Positions 12,321-50,562 of a stretch of 64,000 nucleotides of DNA are shown here, in pieces (position 1 is the stretch's first letter; every line of letters begins with the position of its first letter). The position numbers were made by a program, and so were the translations under genes. Under the pieces are notes generated by a model that did not search any database, was not told the origin of the DNA, and saw nothing but the letters and a program-made list of their open reading frames with translations. The DNA is from an uncultured Hormoscilla sp. Its GTDB lineage: Bacteria; Cyanobacteriota; Cyanobacteriia; Cyanobacteriales; Desertifilaceae. The stretch spans positions 2,976,001-3,040,000 of the forward strand of contig OZ001293.3 of NCBI GenBank assembly GCA_963921275.4, read 5' to 3'.

Positions 12321-12460
12321 AGTGGAACGAGTGCTGGGGGAGTGGAACGAGTGCTGGGGGAGTAGAACGAGTGCGGGTTGGATAATGACTGTTGCGGGTT
12401 GAGCAGTGACCTGTGCAGGTTGGATAATGACTGTTGCGGTTGAGCAGTGACCAGAGTTGG
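12321..12460. repeat. degenerate 20/21-bp tandem repeats
   Basis: GAGTGGAACGAGTGCTGGGG x2-3, then alternating GATAATGACTGTTGCGGGTTG / AGCAGTGACC units. Confidence 0.75.
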
Positions 12461-12967: not shown

Positions 12968-13750
12968 GTCAGACCGGGGTCGAGCTGGTACTCGCGTACC
13001 AACCCTCCCTTTCGGAACCTGAAGAGCGACTTTCACCGCACACGGCTACTGGTTAATAGGCTGTTGTCATCAGTAGGATTACCGAGGGTTACCCCGTTTG
13101 TCCCTTGTCCCATGAAATTTTGCCCCTTTGTGGTCAGTCGATGGACCCTTAGCTACCTAACTCCGGAAGGTTCGCGGGGGTTAGACCAGAAAACCACATC
13201 TCCGCTCTTTACTAAGTTTTCCCTTTGTTTTTGGAGCCCTGTATCTTTACCCGGTTAGGATTTTAATCCACCATTAATCCCTAGGATTTCTCCTGGTTTA
13301 TTACATTCAAAGGCTACTTTCTCCCAGAACCTCCTATTATATCCGTCCTACGTCAGCATATCCCAGGCATTACCCCGGGCGTTGGCTTCTTAGGACATCC
13401 CTTCCTCTGTGGCATGCGCTTTACATCTAACTTGTCCAAATGGGGACAGCACACAGGAGATTACCTCGTTCCTTGATATCATTTCACGAGACTTTTAGGT
13501 CCCTTCTTTCCACCGGTAGTCCTATTCGGGTAATTACTAGCTACCTATAACAGCTAGTACGCTGACTACTTTCACAATTTTGTGTCGAGCGTTTTATCAG
13601 CCCTTTTCGCTCGTTCTGTGTAACGACGTTTATACGAAGGTTCGCTTTTTCTAACCATGAGCCTCTTTCCTAGCGGTTTCGTTCTCCGGACTGACCTTAT
13701 CCTACATTTTAGTCCTTGCTTCACACCACGGCGATGTGACTCCGTAGCAC
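12968..13750 (-). mobile_element. ORF-less group II intron (~780 nt)
   Basis: 5' end GTGCTACG; domain V-like AGCCGTGTGCGGTGAAAGTCGC..GGTTC (13014-13048); domain VI hairpin ending AC; no RT motifs, only an ORF stub. Confidence 0.8.
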
Positions 13751-14418: not shown

Positions 14419-15636
14419 CTACTGAAGTTCTCCCGTTACCAACCTCCTCAAAATCTCGGTCACTTCCGCAGCCATCCGGGCATCTACCTCTACGGCCTCC
14501 CGGTCGCGTAGCGTGCGCGCAGCGCAATCGAAATCACCCAATGCTTTGGCACAGCGCAGGGTCATGGCCACAGAGATTAGTTTGTCCTGGTAATCAAACT
14601 GAGTAAAGCAGGTGTAAGTTAACTCGGTGCGCTGTTGCCAGCTACTGTAGCCAAAGCCCATTTTCGAGAGTATGACAGGCTTGGAGATCCTATTTTGGAT
14701 GCCTAGCTTCTCAATGGCTACGTCAAGGTAGCGGCCAGGATCTTTACCCAGAGCAAGAATAAATGGTTTCAAGTTGTCCCAAGAACTTCCAGGCAATTGC
14801 GCTGTCGATGGCAGGTGATAATGCCACCCTACCATTGAGATGATTCTCGTCAAGTCATAAGCTGTCACCGAGTTTTCGGTCTTCTCTGTTTCTGGTGCAG
14901 CAGTCAATAGCACCTCATCTGACTTAATCACTTCCGGGTTAGCAATAAACGGATCTTCACCATACATCCCCCGAAATATGGTATGGGGCGTACCAGTAAT
15001 TCCCTTCAGCCATGCTTCTAAATCAGCAAATGTCTGAAAACGCTTAAACATGGCTGCTATAGAATTAGAACTACCTATCTTTGAGTCATAGGTAACAATA
15101 TCCTCGATCAGTTCCGGGATGCCAAAGCTTTTGCCATCACCCCTGACTGCACAAGCATTGATATCTGTCTTGAGGGAACAGATGACATTCAGAATGGGAA
15201 TGATTTTGGTCGTACTCCAAAACTCACCCCGGACGCGGGCTTCTCTTCCCAACCAACGGGCTTTGAATGGCCCTCCTTCCGCACCGCCAATGCAAATACA
15301 GGCTTGCTTGATGTCGGGATGGAGAAATTCTAGTGCTTGTTCGTCAATTGCGGGCAACTCCCCTACTTGGGGATAAGAGGGAACTCCCCCGATCGCCAAG
15401 GAAGGCTGTTCGGTTAAATAGTCTGGGTAATTCTCCACCTGACTGTGATAGGGTGAGTTTTTAATCCCTTTGTCTAGAAAAGCTAGCTTATAGCTGTTGA
15501 AGCCTGCTTCTGAGTCTAGAAACTGATTGTAGACCAGATTCCGATCTTGGGCTATTGTCAGAGAGACGGTCTCGCTGACGAAATTAAAAAAGTTAGTAAT
15601 CAGCTCAGTTATCGTATGAAGTGTCAATTCATTCAT
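14419..15636 (-). CDS. hypothetical protein with penicillin-binding-protein/class A beta-lactamase-like motifs
   Basis: WSTTK (SxxK), SSN (SxN) and KMG (KTG-like) occur in the canonical order. Confidence 0.6.
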   Translation of the reverse strand: MNELTLHTITELITNFFNFVSETVSLTIAQDRNLVYNQFLDSEAGFNSYKLAFLDKGIKNSPYHSQVENYPDYLTEQPSLAIGGVPSYPQVGELPAIDEQALEFLHPDIKQACICIGGAEGGPFKARWLGREARVRGEFWSTTKIIPILNVICSLKTDINACAVRGDGKSFGIPELIEDIVTYDSKIGSSNSIAAMFKRFQTFADLEAWLKGITGTPHTIFRGMYGEDPFIANPEVIKSDEVLLTAAPETEKTENSVTAYDLTRIISMVGWHYHLPSTAQLPGSSWDNLKPFILALGKDPGRYLDVAIEKLGIQNRISKPVILSKMGFGYSSWQQRTELTYTCFTQFDYQDKLISVAMTLRCAKALGDFDCAARTLRDREAVEVDARMAAEVTEILRRLVTGELQ

Positions 15637-15683: not shown

Positions 15684-17641
15684 TTACAAAAACCACAAAC
15701 GCCGATCGCGCTGCATTCCTGGCGGGAGCAGGTCTTTTAAGGCACGCGACGCTGCCCGATCGGCATAATAGGTGGTAATGGGTAAGCGGACAGTCTGAGT
15801 CGTGCCCACTTGCATCAGACTTAACCAGTATACCTGTTCGGCGAGGGTAAGTAAATCCGTCTCGCCCATCCTTTTTCTAATGCGCAGGGGACGGGGAGCA
15901 CTCTTAGGACTTACTTTAGTCTCGCGCCGACCCGTCGTCAGAATCACCGCTTCATTGCGAGCATATTCCCAAGCATATCCATTTTCCGGGTTCCTGGAAT
16001 TCTTAGGATTCTCTGGGTTATATTCTACAGCTCGACAAGTCCCTGATTTGATTACTTCCACCACATCCACCTGTTTTATTCCGGCTACATGTTTCTGCAA
16101 ATCCGAAATTGCTTCCATCTCTGCATCTCGAACATCCCCGTCGCGATGAATCACTAAATGTTGGAGCTTGCACTTAAAATGGCGATCGTACAATATGACA
16201 AAATTTCCTAACCAATCCATGAGTTGAACGCGATTGAGGGCTTCTCTGTAGACAGGAAACTTAGCTGTTGACCAACCGATCGTCCTACCGGTTCTGTCTA
16301 TCAAGAACGCTGCCGCGACTGTGTCCCTATTTTTCCTGCCAAAATCTAGACCAATAAAAGCTTGGGCTTTTCCTGGCATATCCTTCAGACGCCAACTGAA
16401 ATGACCGAGTTTGGCATTGATTCCCAGAATTACATTCCGACCGATATACTCGTTCCATCCCCTTTTGAGGGTAGATTTGGTAATCATCTGAGATGGCAGT
16501 TGCCGCTTGACAAATTCCTGCTTAATCAGTTCGTAAGGATTGACCTCTCGCGTAAAGTATTTTTCCCCCGGTTTGGGAACGTAAGCAATGACAGCAGCTT
16601 ATGCGCTTTCATTCCAGCCGCTGGATAGGGAAATAAACCTTTTCCAAAATCGAGATTACTCGAACCCTGCTTAAAGTTTTGCAGGTTTCGCGGTTCGCGC
16701 AGGGACTCGGAAAACTTGACGGGAATGTCATTCAGATGAAAGCGATTTTTGGCGTTGAGAAACTTAATGCTGGAGATCGCCTTCTCGACTTTTTCGCCAA
16801 TGGGCAATAGTTGCTGTTTTAAAAACTCATCTTCTACGTCTTCTCGGTCATAAATTTTCCGCAACAGTTGCGGCATGTGGCTGGCCTCAAAATCTATTTT
16901 CCCACTATTTTTATACTTCACCGTGACCGCTGGTGTCGAGGGGTCTAAGGAATTAAGTAATTCATTATCCAGGTTACCTTTTTGCTTGTGGTAGTCAAGG
17001 ACACTCTTATTCCCTAGGGCAGATAGTATAGTGCTAATGTTTTTTTCCTTGTCGATGCGGACAAATTCACAAACCTTGTCATCATACTTGTGCAGCAAGC
17101 GATCGCCAGGATCCAAACTGTCCAGTCCCAGTTGGTCGATCGTCAACTGGGAGTGATACTCGTTAGCGAAGTCAAGCACTAAAACTAAATGCTGATTTTC
17201 TTCTCGGATAAAGTAAAATTTCAGATACATTTGACCTTCCATCCCATCCGTAGTTACCCTCTCTTTGGAATAAATACGTTGGCGCTCGCGATCTACTTTC
17301 GGAGGATGCTTGGCGCTCTGAAAAGCATTATACAGGGCAAAGTTGCAAACCTGGAACAAGTAGCGATTGTATCTGGGTTCAGCTAAGTTAATTGACTCTT
17401 CGTCTATAATACTGTAGCGATCGTCCTGTCTGGCCAACGGAACTAAACTTAAAATGGCACAGTTAGTGATGTCTGCAAGAATGGCAGTTTTGTGTTTCCA
17501 TTTCAGACTCCTAGCTAACGTTCCCAGTTTTCTGGGTAGTTCGTCACTTGCTGCATTTAGTCTGACGCGATAGCGGGTGTAAGGTAGTGAGACGATCGGC
17601 TTTTGACTGACAAAGCTCAATTCTCGTATTAGCATCGGCAT
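15684..17641 (-). pseudogene. ago: long prokaryotic Argonaute (N-PAZ-MID-PIWI), split near 16595
   Basis: PIWI motifs FIGLD, IHRDG, VEVIKSG and RLPITTYYADR; MID motifs YELIK, PSQMI and NVILGINAKLG; upstream ORF has a PAZ-like SVLDYH..PAVTVKY..HMPQLL segment. Confidence 0.9.
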
Positions 17642-18190
17642 TGACTCCCTTGACTTGACTTAGCTTACCATAATCTGGGCGATCCATAACTGCTATATTT
17701 TTTTGTCGCCTGTGCTACTGTTTTTGACTGGTGACCGGACCAGAATCCCCAAGGTTCTGTCGCGCTATTAAATTGCAGAGGTCGAAAAGCTGATGTCTTT
17801 GTTATCAATGGCTTTCCCAATTTAAAATTTTGAATTGCTTAGTCACTCTTCAATGCTACTATATAAATTATAGATCCTATAGGGTTTCCTGTCCTTCAGT
17901 GGTCAAAAGTAGTTGTATTAGTGGGGAACAGGGAACGGAGAACGGGGAACAGGAAACGCTCGCAGGGAACGGCGAACGGTTGCCAACGGGCGCAAGACCA
18001 CACCCGTTTAAAACCCCGACGGAGAGGTTTGAAACCCAAACGCGCGTCTTGAATCTTGCCAAGTATTCCCTGAATCTCCTCAATATCATAACCGTCAAGG
18101 AATCTGAACACGGAGGATGCCAGATACTCCCGATCGATAAAATGTGCAACGCCCTCTCCAGCTTTCGCCAGGGAGTTGCCTTCCATTCAT

Positions 18191-18400
18191 CTTTAACGCA
18201 GAGTTGCGCGACTTTAACGTAGAGTCACGCGACTTTAACGCAGAGTCACGCGACTTTAATGCAGAGTTGCGCGACTTTAACGCAGAGTTGCGCGACTTTA
18301 ACGCAGAGTTGCGCGACTTTAACGCAGAGTTGCGCGACTTTAACGCAGAGTTGCGCGACTTTATATATTGGTTATATGACTTTTACGCAGATGCTCCGAA
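18191..18400. repeat. 21-bp tandem repeat, 8 copies plus 2 degenerate
   Basis: Unit CTTTAACGCAGAGTTGCGCGA; no spacers. Confidence 0.95.
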
Positions 18401-18528
18401 TATAAGGGTTTTGAAGGTTGCACAATCACGGGATGATAAGGGCTGCTAATGGCTAATACTCAAAGGTTAATCTAGATAGTCATTGGTAGTCATGAATAGA
18501 TTGATTTACTCTTTGCAATTAGCAATTT

Positions 18529-18725
18529 TCAACCATTGGCTCTTCCAAATGGCTTTATCCACTCGACATACTCGGTTTCCTCGACATTACCATAGGTTTT
18601 CTTGCGGCGCAGGGCAAAAGGCGGGGAAGTCATGACAAGATCGATACTGTTGTCTAGCAACTCTGCTAGGAGTTCAAAGGAATCACCTACGTAGGCTTGA
18701 CCTCTTGTTGTGTGATAAATTTGAA
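18529..18725 (-). pseudogene. N-terminal fragment of a beta-class amino (probably N4-cytosine) DNA methyltransferase, M.PvuII-like
   Basis: GDSFELL..SIDLVMTSPPFALRRKKTYGN..EYVEW, then an abrupt end. Confidence 0.85.
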
Positions 18726-19855
18726 TTAAAGGTATCAACAAGAGCCGTCGCTGAAGTTGCCGAAGCGAATTTGCCTAATGCCCATGCTGCTCCTGCCCGT
18801 AGTTCCTCATCACGGTCGCTGTCCTGCAACACCTCAATCAGTATGCTTTTGCTATGTTTCTTTGGTATTTCGGATACCACAATGACTGTTTCCAGTTGTG
18901 TTTGAAGGGGCACGCTCATGACTGGGCTTCGCAGTTTTCTCTCTATGAACTTCCAACCATTCGGGTCGTCGTATGCAGCCAGGGCCGCCGCCGCCTCCAG
19001 TTGAACGTAGATATCCTCATCGGGATCGTTCATCCGGGATGCGAGTGCAGACTTAGCATTGCTATAACCGCGATAACGCAGAGCCTTGGCAGCCGCATAT
19101 CTTTCGCTGAGATTAACACTAGCGAGTTTGTCTGTAAAATATGTTTCATCAATTGGTGGGGGACATTTGAGGTCTGTATAGACAGGTACAACTGACGCAA
19201 CAATTTGATTTGCTTCCACTAGATCTCCTACTTTAACCTGCGGTAACAAGGTTATCTTTCCTCCACTCCGGCTTAACTGGATAGTTTGCCGACGCCCATT
19301 CTGGATCGGAGTAAGACTGACCTTATTAGGTTCCACAGCAAAAACTTGTGACCTCTGTTTGGCAGCGGCACATACCCACACTACCCTGATTTCATAGCCT
19401 TCCTCGACCCCTTTTGGCTGAGTGATAGACACTTGTTCGGCGCTAAAGGCATTACGCAGATCGCTGACGCTAACAAAATGAATAGGAGAAATTTGCTTCA
19501 GGTCAACAGGAGAACCATCTTCTTGCTCAAACATAATGATTGAAACCAGGTCATCATCCCGCATTCCAGCATCCCATGATCTCTTGGGATCCTTCAGGGA
19601 ATGAGACATTGATATTTCGAGTTTTGTCTTGCCGCGAGATTCAAACCTAAGCCCCGTGTTTAAGCAGAGGATGTCAGGCATCCGTACACGCTTGATCTTG
19701 ATTTTCTTCCAAATCTTAAAGCCAGTAGACCCGCGATCGAGTTCGATCGGGTTAAAGTCCATGCTTCTCAGATAGGCAATAGTCGCATTTGTCCCGGCTG
19801 CACCAACCGCAAGTTTTCTCAAGAAACTATCGTCGCTCTTAAAATTATTTGCCAT
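18683..19855 (-). CDS. putative PD-(D/E)xK endonuclease with C-terminal HEAT repeats, probably 3'-truncated
   Basis: RMPDILC..FESRGK; HEAT-like units ERYAAAKALR, DEDIYVQLEAAAALA and DEELRAGAAWALG; adjacent to the MTase remnant. Confidence 0.6.
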   Translation of the reverse strand: MANNFKSDDSFLRKLAVGAAGTNATIAYLRSMDFNPIELDRGSTGFKIWKKIKIKRVRMPDILCLNTGLRFESRGKTKLEISMSHSLKDPKRSWDAGMRDDDLVSIIMFEQEDGSPVDLKQISPIHFVSVSDLRNAFSAEQVSITQPKGVEEGYEIRVVWVCAAAKQRSQVFAVEPNKVSLTPIQNGRRQTIQLSRSGGKITLLPQVKVGDLVEANQIVASVVPVYTDLKCPPPIDETYFTDKLASVNLSERYAAAKALRYRGYSNAKSALASRMNDPDEDIYVQLEAAAALAAYDDPNGWKFIERKLRSPVMSVPLQTQLETVIVVSEIPKKHSKSILIEVLQDSDRDEELRAGAAWALGKFASATSATALVDTFNSNLSHNKRSSLRR

Positions 19856-24041: not shown

Positions 24042-25307
24042 ATGAGTAGTGAGACAAAGAAAGAACGACCGATCGCAGTAGACTTGTGCGCAGGTGCAGG
24101 AGGGATGACCCTAGGGTTTGAACAAGCAGGGTTTGACGTGCTGGCATCTTTTGACATAGACCCAATACACTGCGCTATCCACGAGTATAATTTCCCCTTT
24201 TGGTCAGTATTATGCCAGAATATAGTAGAAATTACGGAAGAGGAAATAAGGTCGAGGTCAAAAATAGGCGATCGGGAGATAGACGTAGTGCTGGCAGGAT
24301 TACCAATATATCAAGGATTGGCATCCAAGGGCAGACGGGCAGCGGAGGAACAGCGGAACTCGGTGTTGTATCATTTTCACAGACTGGTGGTGGAGCTACA
24401 ACCGAAATATTTTGTGATGGAAAATGACCGGGGACTGGCGATCGGGAGGCCAAAACAGCGACTGAAGACTTTGATCAAGGAGTTGAAGGCAGCAGGCTAT
24501 CAAGTACAAGAGGAATACAAATCTCTCAATGCAGCCAACTACGGGGTACCAGAGGCTCGGGAACGATTGTATCTGCTAGGATGCCGGTCAGACAGGAAGT
24601 TGCCGAAATATCCCCCGCCAACGACGAAACCAGCAAAACCCAAGCTGCGCGATCGGCATCGAGATTCAGATCTGCCCCCCGGTCCCACGGTGTGGGATGC
24701 ATTATCAGACCTGCCAGAAGCGAAAAACTACCCAGAATTGTTCAAGCAGGACTGGGCCCAGGCCGAGTACGGCAAGCCTAGCGATTATGCCAGGGCACTG
24801 CGCGAGCGGGACTTTTTAGAAGATAATTATGCCTACGAGCGGGAATACAATCGACAACTGCTCACGGCCAGTATGCTGACTAAACATTCATTGCGATCGA
24901 TTAAACGATTTGAGAATACCAAAGAGGGTCAAAGGGAAAAAATCAGTCGTTTCCAGAAGCTGCATCCAGAAGGAATATGCAACAGTCTCCGGGGGGGAAC
25001 GGACAGGAATCAGGGTTCATTCACGGCCCCGAGACCAATTCATCCCTATATACCCAGATGTATCACAGTCAGGGAAGCAGCAAGGATGCATTCTTTCCCG
25101 GACTGGTTTAGATTTCATGGAACGAAATGGCACGGCTTCCGACAAGTGGCCAATTCTGTACCGCCATTGCTGGCCTTGGCCCTGGGGGCAGAGATTATAC
25201 GTGCCTTGGGAGTGGTACCGTCTAAACCGACGGTCAAGCAGGAGTTGGGAGATAAGAAATTACTACAATTAACTAATTCCCAAGCAAGTCTGCGTTACCG
25301 TTCGTAG
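24042..25307 (+). CDS. DNA cytosine-5 methyltransferase-like protein lacking the catalytic Cys
   Basis: Motifs I (DLCAGAGG), VI (FVMEN), VIII (RERL), IX and X are present; motif IV reads LAGLPIYQG instead of GGPPCQG. Confidence 0.85.
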   Translation: MSSETKKERPIAVDLCAGAGGMTLGFEQAGFDVLASFDIDPIHCAIHEYNFPFWSVLCQNIVEITEEEIRSRSKIGDREIDVVLAGLPIYQGLASKGRRAAEEQRNSVLYHFHRLVVELQPKYFVMENDRGLAIGRPKQRLKTLIKELKAAGYQVQEEYKSLNAANYGVPEARERLYLLGCRSDRKLPKYPPPTTKPAKPKLRDRHRDSDLPPGPTVWDALSDLPEAKNYPELFKQDWAQAEYGKPSDYARALRERDFLEDNYAYEREYNRQLLTASMLTKHSLRSIKRFENTKEGQREKISRFQKLHPEGICNSLRGGTDRNQGSFTAPRPIHPYIPRCITVREAARMHSFPDWFRFHGTKWHGFRQVANSVPPLLALALGAEIIRALGVVPSKPTVKQELGDKKLLQLTNSQASLRYRS

Positions 25308-49078: not shown

Positions 49079-50562
49079 GATTCTCGCTGCTTTTTTTCCT
49101 ATCTTCGGGGATCTCTCCCTTCTTGCCCCTACTCCTGCCGGCGTACTCCCGGCTAGGGCACTGTCTCCCGGATGAGGGCGAGGGCACCCAAAAGGCAGAT
49201 ATTTCCCTGTTTTGGGGGTCCCTCAGAGTACCATGCGGTCACAGCAGTTCCCCTAGCTCTAGGCCCGATGCAGTGGCCTCGCGACCCTCGATCGGGGGGG
49301 CGGCTACGATGTCCTCCAGGCATCGAAGTGCGTCTTCCAGACATCAAGATCCCAGGAGACATCGAGATCCCCCGAGACATCTAGCTGGACCGGGGACATC
49401 GAGCGCGCTTTAGACATCGAAGCCAAAGCGATCGCCCCTTAACGATAGATATATTTGATCGTGGAATAACTCAGTCATGCCCCTCTGTGACTGAGTTATT
49501 TTCTGGAGTGACTGAGTTATTTCTTGGGGTAATTGTTCAGTTCCTAAAGTAACTATTCAGTTCCTGGAGTAACTGGGTCATGCCACCGAGTACGAGAGTC
49601 ATGCCCTGGCGGCACAAAGCTTTGCTTTGACTTGAAACAATGTTACCAAGCGCGATCCGAGTCACTCTCAGGCTGGAAAAAGTCTCTCCAAGGCCGGAGT
49701 CAAATCCGTTCGCGCAGCGTGGCGCAGCCATGGCCAGAGTGAATATTCAGGCTGGACTGAGTGAGGACAAAACAAAATTCAGCTAGGTCATCACTCACAG
49801 ATGTTGTGAAGTGGTTATTTTGCTCTAACTGGATGGGTGCGGTCACAAGTAGTTGATAGCCGCATTGATGATGCATGTAATATAGCCCGCGCAGGCGGGC
49901 TTTGTTCCTGTAGTCGGGCTATGCACGGGTTCCCCAGAAGGCAGATATTTCCCTGTTTTGGGGGTTTTCTGTTGATTTTTTCAGGTTCCGAAACCCTGGG
50001 GTCCCGTCGCTTCTTAGAAGCCCGCAACTTCTTTGTCAAGCTTCTAATTGCTAGATCTTTGTCCTATCTTCGGGGATATCTCCCTTCTTGCCCCTACTCC
50101 TGCTGGCGTACTCCCTGCCAGGGCACTGTCTCCGGAAGCCTGGCGATCGCTACTCCCTTCCTGAATATTTCCATTTCTCTACGTTTTGTAAATTCGTAAC
50201 TTTACTTAACTGGCTCTTCTGGGTTTATAGTGGTAAATGTATTTTCTTATATATTTTTGCGAGATCGAAAAGGCTAAAACCCTTGATTTTGCGTAATCAT
50301 AAGTTTTGCTTATCACCCAAAACCCAGGAGACCCACTTAACTTAAGTTGCTACCTACAGAACCTCAGCACCCACATTCGCCAAAATTCGCGCCTCTTGCC
50401 TTGTAATTTACCTCAAAATGGCATTTTTCTAGATTAATTTGGCAAAAATTGCTGTCTTCCAGGTCAAAAATTTTATCTTGTTGCAACTTGGGTTTACTTA
50501 TCTTTGGAATTGAACTGCAATCGCCAAAGCCTTCTGGTGGGCAGTGCCCACCCTACAGATTA

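Follow-up and report, generated by a model that had tools for sequence, protein, structure and literature searches.

We take CpAgo, CbAgo and AaAgo to be long-A prokaryotic Argonautes (pAgos). Together with KmAgo, they give the best MID-PIWI sequence matches and the best whole-orthologue fold matches (CpAgo, 9jh7/9jh8; CbAgo, 6qzk; KmAgo, 8xhv; AaAgo, 1yvu) to the cyanobacterial clade described here. Like this clade, all four have a DEDD tetrad, a YK-type guide pocket and no conserved partner gene. However, identity in the fold alignments is only 16 to 20%, the N-terminal half of the clade proteins goes unmatched by sequence, and the papers found report no measured activity for a clade member; moreover, the Hormoscilla copy that is our subject is broken. 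As outlined in part of PMC12094033, long-A pAgos that stand alone employ DNA guides to counter plasmids and phages. The same paper describes the APACE1 pAgos, which come with the Cas4-like ACE1 and resemble the clade in being long-A and cyanobacterial, with a DEDX tetrad. They fall on a separate branch of our tree, however, at ∼30% identity, and no Cas4-like open reading frame was found beside the clade pAgo in the window (the whole 64-kb stretch of DNA that was analyzed), in the congeneric genomes G001 to G004, or in G028 and G429.

Profile searches draw the same distinction. The PADLOC pAgo_II model gives 95 bits for the intact orthologue versus 1049 for the APACE1-type protein, and the short-type pAgo_I models stay below 60 bits. 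The best profile is PADLOC PDLC02428, “PprPIWI” (324 bits over the full length), a model that carries no description and whose name we did not find in the literature. We also found no study of the clade or of pAgo loss in Hormoscilla, though subscription journals and supplements (e.g., the protein lists of PMC6299218) may list members; among the papers listed, none pairs Argonaute with Hormoscilla or Aerosakkonema, and two mention it with Moorena or Prochloron. The portion of PMC6520454 consulted describes Hormoscilla itself as a symbiont of sponges, uncultured and with a large genome. Here, we are highly confident that the pAgo of one Hormoscilla genome (G000) is a fixed pseudogene, derived from a catalytic Argonaute of the long-A type.

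The Argonaute locus

The gene lies on the minus strand of the window, from 17641 to 15684, and is a broken long-A-type pAgo. Its 5′ part (N, L1, PAZ and L2; 16594 to 17641) keeps 349 codons in the ancestral frame, and its 3′ part (15684 to 16591) holds a complete PIWI domain and the latter half of MID, in another frame. The first open reading frame (17641 to 16526) gives 371 amino acids, the final ∼22 of which are out of frame ahead of the stop at 16526. The second is open from 16598 to its stop at 15684 (304 amino acids, or 267 from its first ATG at 16487), and the two overlap by 73 nt. This agrees with the original prediction, which had placed a frame switch between ..KAHKLL and AAVIAYVP and considered the joined product (∼650 amino acids) short: the region spans 1958 nt versus 2139 nt in the intact orthologue.

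The prediction had also called for a Piwi/PAZ HMM scan. In Pfam, Piwi scores 71.3 bits on the C-terminal part (cut-off, 28.9), while PAZ_3 scores 24.8 bits on the N-terminal part, below its cut-off of 27, and exceeds that cut-off in a single homologue, P0010 (27.5 bits). An NCBIfam search returned no match for any of four proteins. Against solved structures, the C-terminal part matches CpAgo (E value of 9e-34) and CbAgo (4e-29) as its best relatives, and the N-terminal half has one chance match only (E value of 0.32). Both halves align well with the intact orthologues P0003 and P0026, at 83 to 85% identity in the 5′ part and 92 to 96% in the 3′ part, with P0026 the nearest intact protein (96% in the C-terminal part).

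The DEDD tetrad that the prediction had picked out is present, spanning 15759 to 16346 (D, 16346-16344; E, 16244-16242; D, 16142-16140; D, 15761-15759, all on the minus strand). Its acids, in GLD, YRE, HRDG and YADR, align with GLD, NGE, HRDG and YADK of solved pAgos. The 6qzk chain has Ala at the aligned GLD and HRD positions, the first and third of the tetrad, and HRDG has Ala in 9jh8 versus Asp in 9jh7; these Ala residues are presumably engineered catalytic mutations. The proposed 5′-phosphate pocket of MID, Y-K-Q-K, is likewise in place (minus strand, 16410 to 16535; Y 16535, K 16523, Q 16490 and K 16412). All eight tetrad and pocket residues align with CpAgo and CbAgo, and none of the eight varies among the 20 aligned homologues (22 protein matches minus two fragments). 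The pocket motif follows the definition in section 8 of PMC6299218, and long-B and short pAgos lack the catalytic tetrad, according to the sections of that review consulted here.

Modeled with AlphaFold, the intact orthologue P0003 (pLDDT of 86) has CpAgo, KmAgo and CbAgo as its closest folds (TM scores of 0.73 to 0.77; 0.77 over 794 columns for CpAgo). The orthologue shows the full N-L1-PAZ-L2-MID-PIWI architecture, and the G000 copy has all of these parts except 66 MID residues. Altogether, the tetrad alignment and the sizing of the deletion (below) uphold the active-type call for this long pAgo and place its break in MID.

The clade is small. We found 22 proteins, those with a genus name coming from Hormoscilla, Aerosakkonema, Moorena and Paraprochloron, and a search of 400 other genomes of the phylum at an E value of 1e-60 found the clade in 2. 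In a 39-row tree, whose rows are all cyanobacterial, without long-B, short or outside references, and whose long branches meet near the root, the clade forms 24 rows with support of 92/99, just under the starred level, apart from the other cyanobacterial pAgos, whose 13 rows take in the Cas4-partnered type. The clade is of stand-alone type, since its neighbors differ between genera. By analogy with described systems, DNA-guided action against plasmids and phages is the likeliest ancestral role. Guide and target type are not readable from sequence, as stated in the consulted part of PMC6299218. The ancestral gene (∼718 codons) would have encoded a stand-alone long-A pAgo that, judging by its motifs and fold, most likely bound 5′-phosphorylated DNA guides and cut complementary invading DNA through its DEDD tetrad, like CbAgo and CpAgo.

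The 199-bp deletion

The reference for the lesion is the orthologue in the same-genus genome G001, which has an open frame and 92% identity (among 61 genomes) and encodes 712 amino acids in 2139 nt. Compared with it, the G000 gene misses a single block of 199 bp, equal to 66 codons plus 1 base, at a junction between 16592 and 16593 (minus strand), and this frameshifting deletion leaves no single open reading frame. All other indels are in frame. A single-base slip is ruled out, as 199 bp are missing, and the prediction of a deletion in its place holds both in the orthologue alignment, the gap sizing it had proposed, and in a sponge-metagenome contig (below).

The mechanism offered with that prediction, microhomology at GCTGCTG, did not survive. 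The left flank of the junction reads AAGCTGCTG in G003 and G004; GCTGCTG is therefore left-flank sequence of relatives intact at this point and no junction repeat, and the only bases common to both ends are TG, at 16593-16592. Since by our own arithmetic a 2-bp overlap arises at a random junction about 1 time in 6, a microhomology mechanism is unsupported. The missing 199 bp were not found elsewhere in the G000 genome (best match, E value of 0.086).

In the P0003 model, the deleted residues, 343 to 408, lie where MID begins and fold into two strands and two helices (strand 347-355, helix 356-375, strand 379-387 and helix 392-401); they include six columns invariant in 20 of 20 homologues. The pocket residues are still present in G000, but the fold that bears them is truncated.

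The neighborhood of the gene

Upstream of the pAgo by ∼0.4 to 1.1 kb lies the remnant of an N4/N6 type II DNA methyltransferase (minus strand, 18045 to 18741; N6_N4_Mtase E value of 0.008). A dispersed repeat interrupts the remnant, whose pieces lie at 18719-18540 and 18138-18045. Its counterpart in G003 is whole (338 amino acids; 517 bits on PADLOC MTase_II). Farther upstream, a gene of 390 amino acids (minus strand, 18683 to 19855) matches HEAT models only, and a 358-bp deletion removed its 3′ end together with the methyltransferase start. Its HEAT repeats are C-terminal, and its N-terminal half has a PD...ESRGK stretch. By eye, we take this stretch to resemble a PD-(D/E)xK nuclease motif; it has no family match. 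No restriction nuclease was identified near the methyltransferase, and the HEAT-repeat gene lacks a nuclease family match. Between these genes and the pAgo, G002, G003 and G004 carry an HTH and PIN pair that is absent in G000.

The original prediction had seen here a decaying defense island with a restriction-modification remnant. The shattered methyltransferase and the HTH and PIN pair of congeners speak for it, but there is no restriction nuclease, the GC dip is small, and decay is genome-wide; we consider the island reading fair but modest. Downstream by 47 bp, a 405-amino-acid gene (minus strand, 14419 to 15636) is beta-lactamase-like by its features, with PF13354 as Atlas lead, a domain that 39% of the proteins in the nearest named cluster carry. 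It is ruled out as a pAgo partner, being whole in all five genus genomes and present in 21 of 61 genomes, most of them without the pAgo clade.

Elsewhere in the window, 21-bp tandem arrays occur at 18191-18540 (8.2 copies in 18191-18363) and at 12321-12452; they lie inside a repeat that all five genus genomes carry, scattered over dozens of sites. A whole C5 cytosine methyltransferase of 421 amino acids (Pfam, 182 bits) occupies 24042 to 25307. An Rfam scan of the window gave a single match, a CRISPR-DR28 repeat at 49883-49906, distant from the pAgo locus.

Parallel losses and genome decay

The G000 break belongs to a wider pattern. The pAgo is broken in four of five Hormoscilla genomes (G000, G002, G003 and G004), with lesions that all differ, and is intact in G001. 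In G002, a 199-bp deletion at codons 33 to 98 (L026:9940-10262), with a TG overlap, is joined by one ∼1.6-kb deletion. The G003 gene has lost 1 bp at codon 390 and carries D688E in the final tetrad residue. In G004, an 887-bp ORF-less group II intron sits in sense at codon 485 (L025:8143-9029), where it might splice out, and the gene is also broken near codon 583, with its halves in different contexts and an inverted repeat beside each. The equal sizes in G000 and G002 raised a special 199-bp deletion mechanism, which we set aside: none of 116 sampled indels (30 to 3000 bp) was 199 bp, and with no such peak we treat the match as coincidence.

Loss is neither universal in the genus nor strictly tied to sponges, because full-length copies persist in close relatives. 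P0003, P0004, P0005 and P0026 are full length, a contig of the sponge-metagenome run X5 is putatively so, and P0006 begins ∼92 residues late. Of the closest Hormoscilla loci, L031, from a sediment bin, is whole, and L033 and L032/L034 are broken. Among other clade members, P0030/P0033 and P0035 are split by nonsense codons in different places on large contigs. Of four copies in the genus of G028, one has a stop, two are whole and one is cut by a contig end.

Selection on the broken copies looks relaxed. Lineage-specific non-synonymous and synonymous changes number 21.5 and 8.5 in G000, 18 and 6 in G003, and 13 and 7 in G004, compared to 19.5 and 21.5 in the intact G001. The corresponding rate ratio is ∼0.75 for G000 and 0.73 when the three broken lineages are pooled, versus 0.27 in G001 (Fisher P = 0.009 pooled and 0.03 for G000 alone, in a test of four related genomes with one intact lineage).

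A second pAgo fares no better. Its Cas4-partnered, APACE1-type system lies ∼19 kb past the window end (L027:7182-10207; G000:C1:3059181-3062206), and both the pAgo and its Cas4-like partner are frameshifted in G000. This second pAgo is disrupted in all four carriers (G000, G002, G003 and G004), differently in G002, G003 and G004, and was not found in G001 (93% complete).

Decay extends well beyond Argonautes. From 249 open reading frames of at least 250 amino acids in 663 kb of G001, after dropping 43 absent, 24 partial and 2 multicopy, 33 of 180 scorable genes that are whole in G001 are broken in G000. The reverse count, which dropped 35 partial, 19 multicopy and 16 at contig edges, found 7 of 165 broken in G001. 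Ten of the 33 carry insertions of at least 640 bp, of which nine match a group II intron, six in sense; these six might splice. Without the ten insertion carriers, the count is 23 of 170. Under relaxed selection, the genus has lost this gene several times in parallel, the G000 loss among them, probably as part of a general erosion in what are likely sponge-symbiont lineages.

Group II introns and pAgo loss

The G000 genome is rich in group II introns. One ORF-less intron of 867 bp has 145 copies at ≥90% identity (for example, L099:210-1077; G000:C1:10309-11175). We counted ∼415 group II intron 3′ ends, compared to none in a shuffled 2-Mb control and none in a G001 sample, and 55 reverse-transcriptase-like frames. 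The largest published count for representative genomes is 101, under stricter criteria than ours, in the part of PMC8919778 consulted, and we found no literature on group II introns in Hormoscilla. Within the window, a group II intron 3′-end-like match at 12978-13050 (minus strand) falls below the Rfam gathering score.

Could the loss of pAgo be causally tied to this intron swarm? Loss might have freed the introns, or the introns might select against a nuclease that takes its guides from multicopy DNA; such a tie is compatible with a pseudogene and differs in cause only. With 150 candidates scored per genome and repeats undercounted in fragmented assemblies, RF00029 matches number at least 151, 144, 143 and 111 in the four congeners with a broken pAgo versus 2 in the intact G001. 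Beyond the genus, G028, whose pAgo has a nonsense codon, has at least 150 (150 of 150 scored) and the intact G429 has 0; G340 has 2. Both pAgo systems are broken in the four intron-rich congeners, and an intron sits inside the G004 gene. However, G438, a closed single contig of another genus, has an intact pAgo and 77 matches, and the intact G437 (71% complete) has 18; G005 has neither the clade pAgo nor introns. Undercounting in fragmented assemblies and the non-independence of kin weaken the comparison further, genomes with pAgos do not have fewer transposons according to the part of PMC6299218 consulted, and drift in symbionts accounts for both patterns. Because an intact-pAgo genome of another genus holds 77 matches, we favor shared genome decay as the likelier cause and think a causal tie improbable. 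We would give equally long odds to the broader proposal that the clade restrains group II introns, or turns self-toxic as they multiply, such that repeated independent loss in Hormoscilla and in the genus of G028 tracks the swarms; in that doubtful reading, the swarms would be several times the published bacterial maximum.

A broken gene or a functional one?

One could suppose that expression of the gene continues, through −1 frameshifting at a C CCA AAC heptamer (minus strand, 16571 to 16577) or as two chains of 371 and 267 amino acids, to yield an Argonaute that is split or lacks MID. There is a 73-nt overlap between the frames, the shift needed is −1, the heptamer has the canonical slippery form and is in phase within the overlap, and every catalytic residue is whole; rare MID-less pAgos are also on record, in the consulted part of PMC6299218. 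Yet such a heptamer is expected by chance in 7.5% of 24-codon stretches, the downstream fold is weak (−8.1 kcal/mol over 65 nt), and the heptamer is older than the deletion, because G004 has it with MID whole there; we judge it incidental. The product would miss 66 structured residues, no relative has this break in common and other lineages are broken elsewhere, and selection appears relaxed. Continued expression is thus very unlikely. An AfAgo-like split pAgo was rejected separately, as the break lies inside MID, 66 residues are deleted and relatives are broken elsewhere.

Least likely is an assembly or sequencing error: the matching runs X1, X3 and X4 come from one study, possibly the source of the assembly, and were compared as contigs and not as raw reads, but because a single contig from each crosses the junction with neither a difference nor a gap (depths of 16, 48 and 85), we regard the break as real. 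All 205 sampled words are present in 4 of 23 runs, and among the loose-end rows listed (24 of 207) there is no joint or loose end at the junction. The relative's contig in X5, by comparison, has 199 extra bases there. The read check that the original prediction had proposed therefore finds the break, and no continuous open reading frame, in run contigs in place of raw reads. The deletion is fixed in the sampled population; contigs drop rare alleles, so these could be hidden.

We therefore return to a fixed pseudogene, tempered by the fact that the deletion is its only inactivating lesion and there is no in-frame stop. One 199-bp deletion shifted the frame and cost MID half of its fold. If translation began at 17641, an N-L1-PAZ-L2 fragment would result; if it restarted at 16487, the product would be PIWI lacking three of the four pocket residues (Y, K and Q). 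Neither fragment should bind a guide.

Implications

In itself, the locus is ordinary, a dead defense gene in an eroding genome. It does, however, mark a rare clade of catalytic long pAgos that is apparently unstudied. Reconstructing the gene is unnecessary, since natural intact orthologues exist (P0003 and P0026), and natural intact members of the clade could be tested as programmable nucleases. Since intron-rich genomes have lost both pAgo systems in parallel, a test of pAgos against retroelements would be easy to arrange, although what we see so far speaks more for shared decay. If the improbable idea of intron restraint were true, these genomes would be a natural experiment on whether Argonautes of prokaryotes silence retroelements the way Piwi proteins do in eukaryotes.
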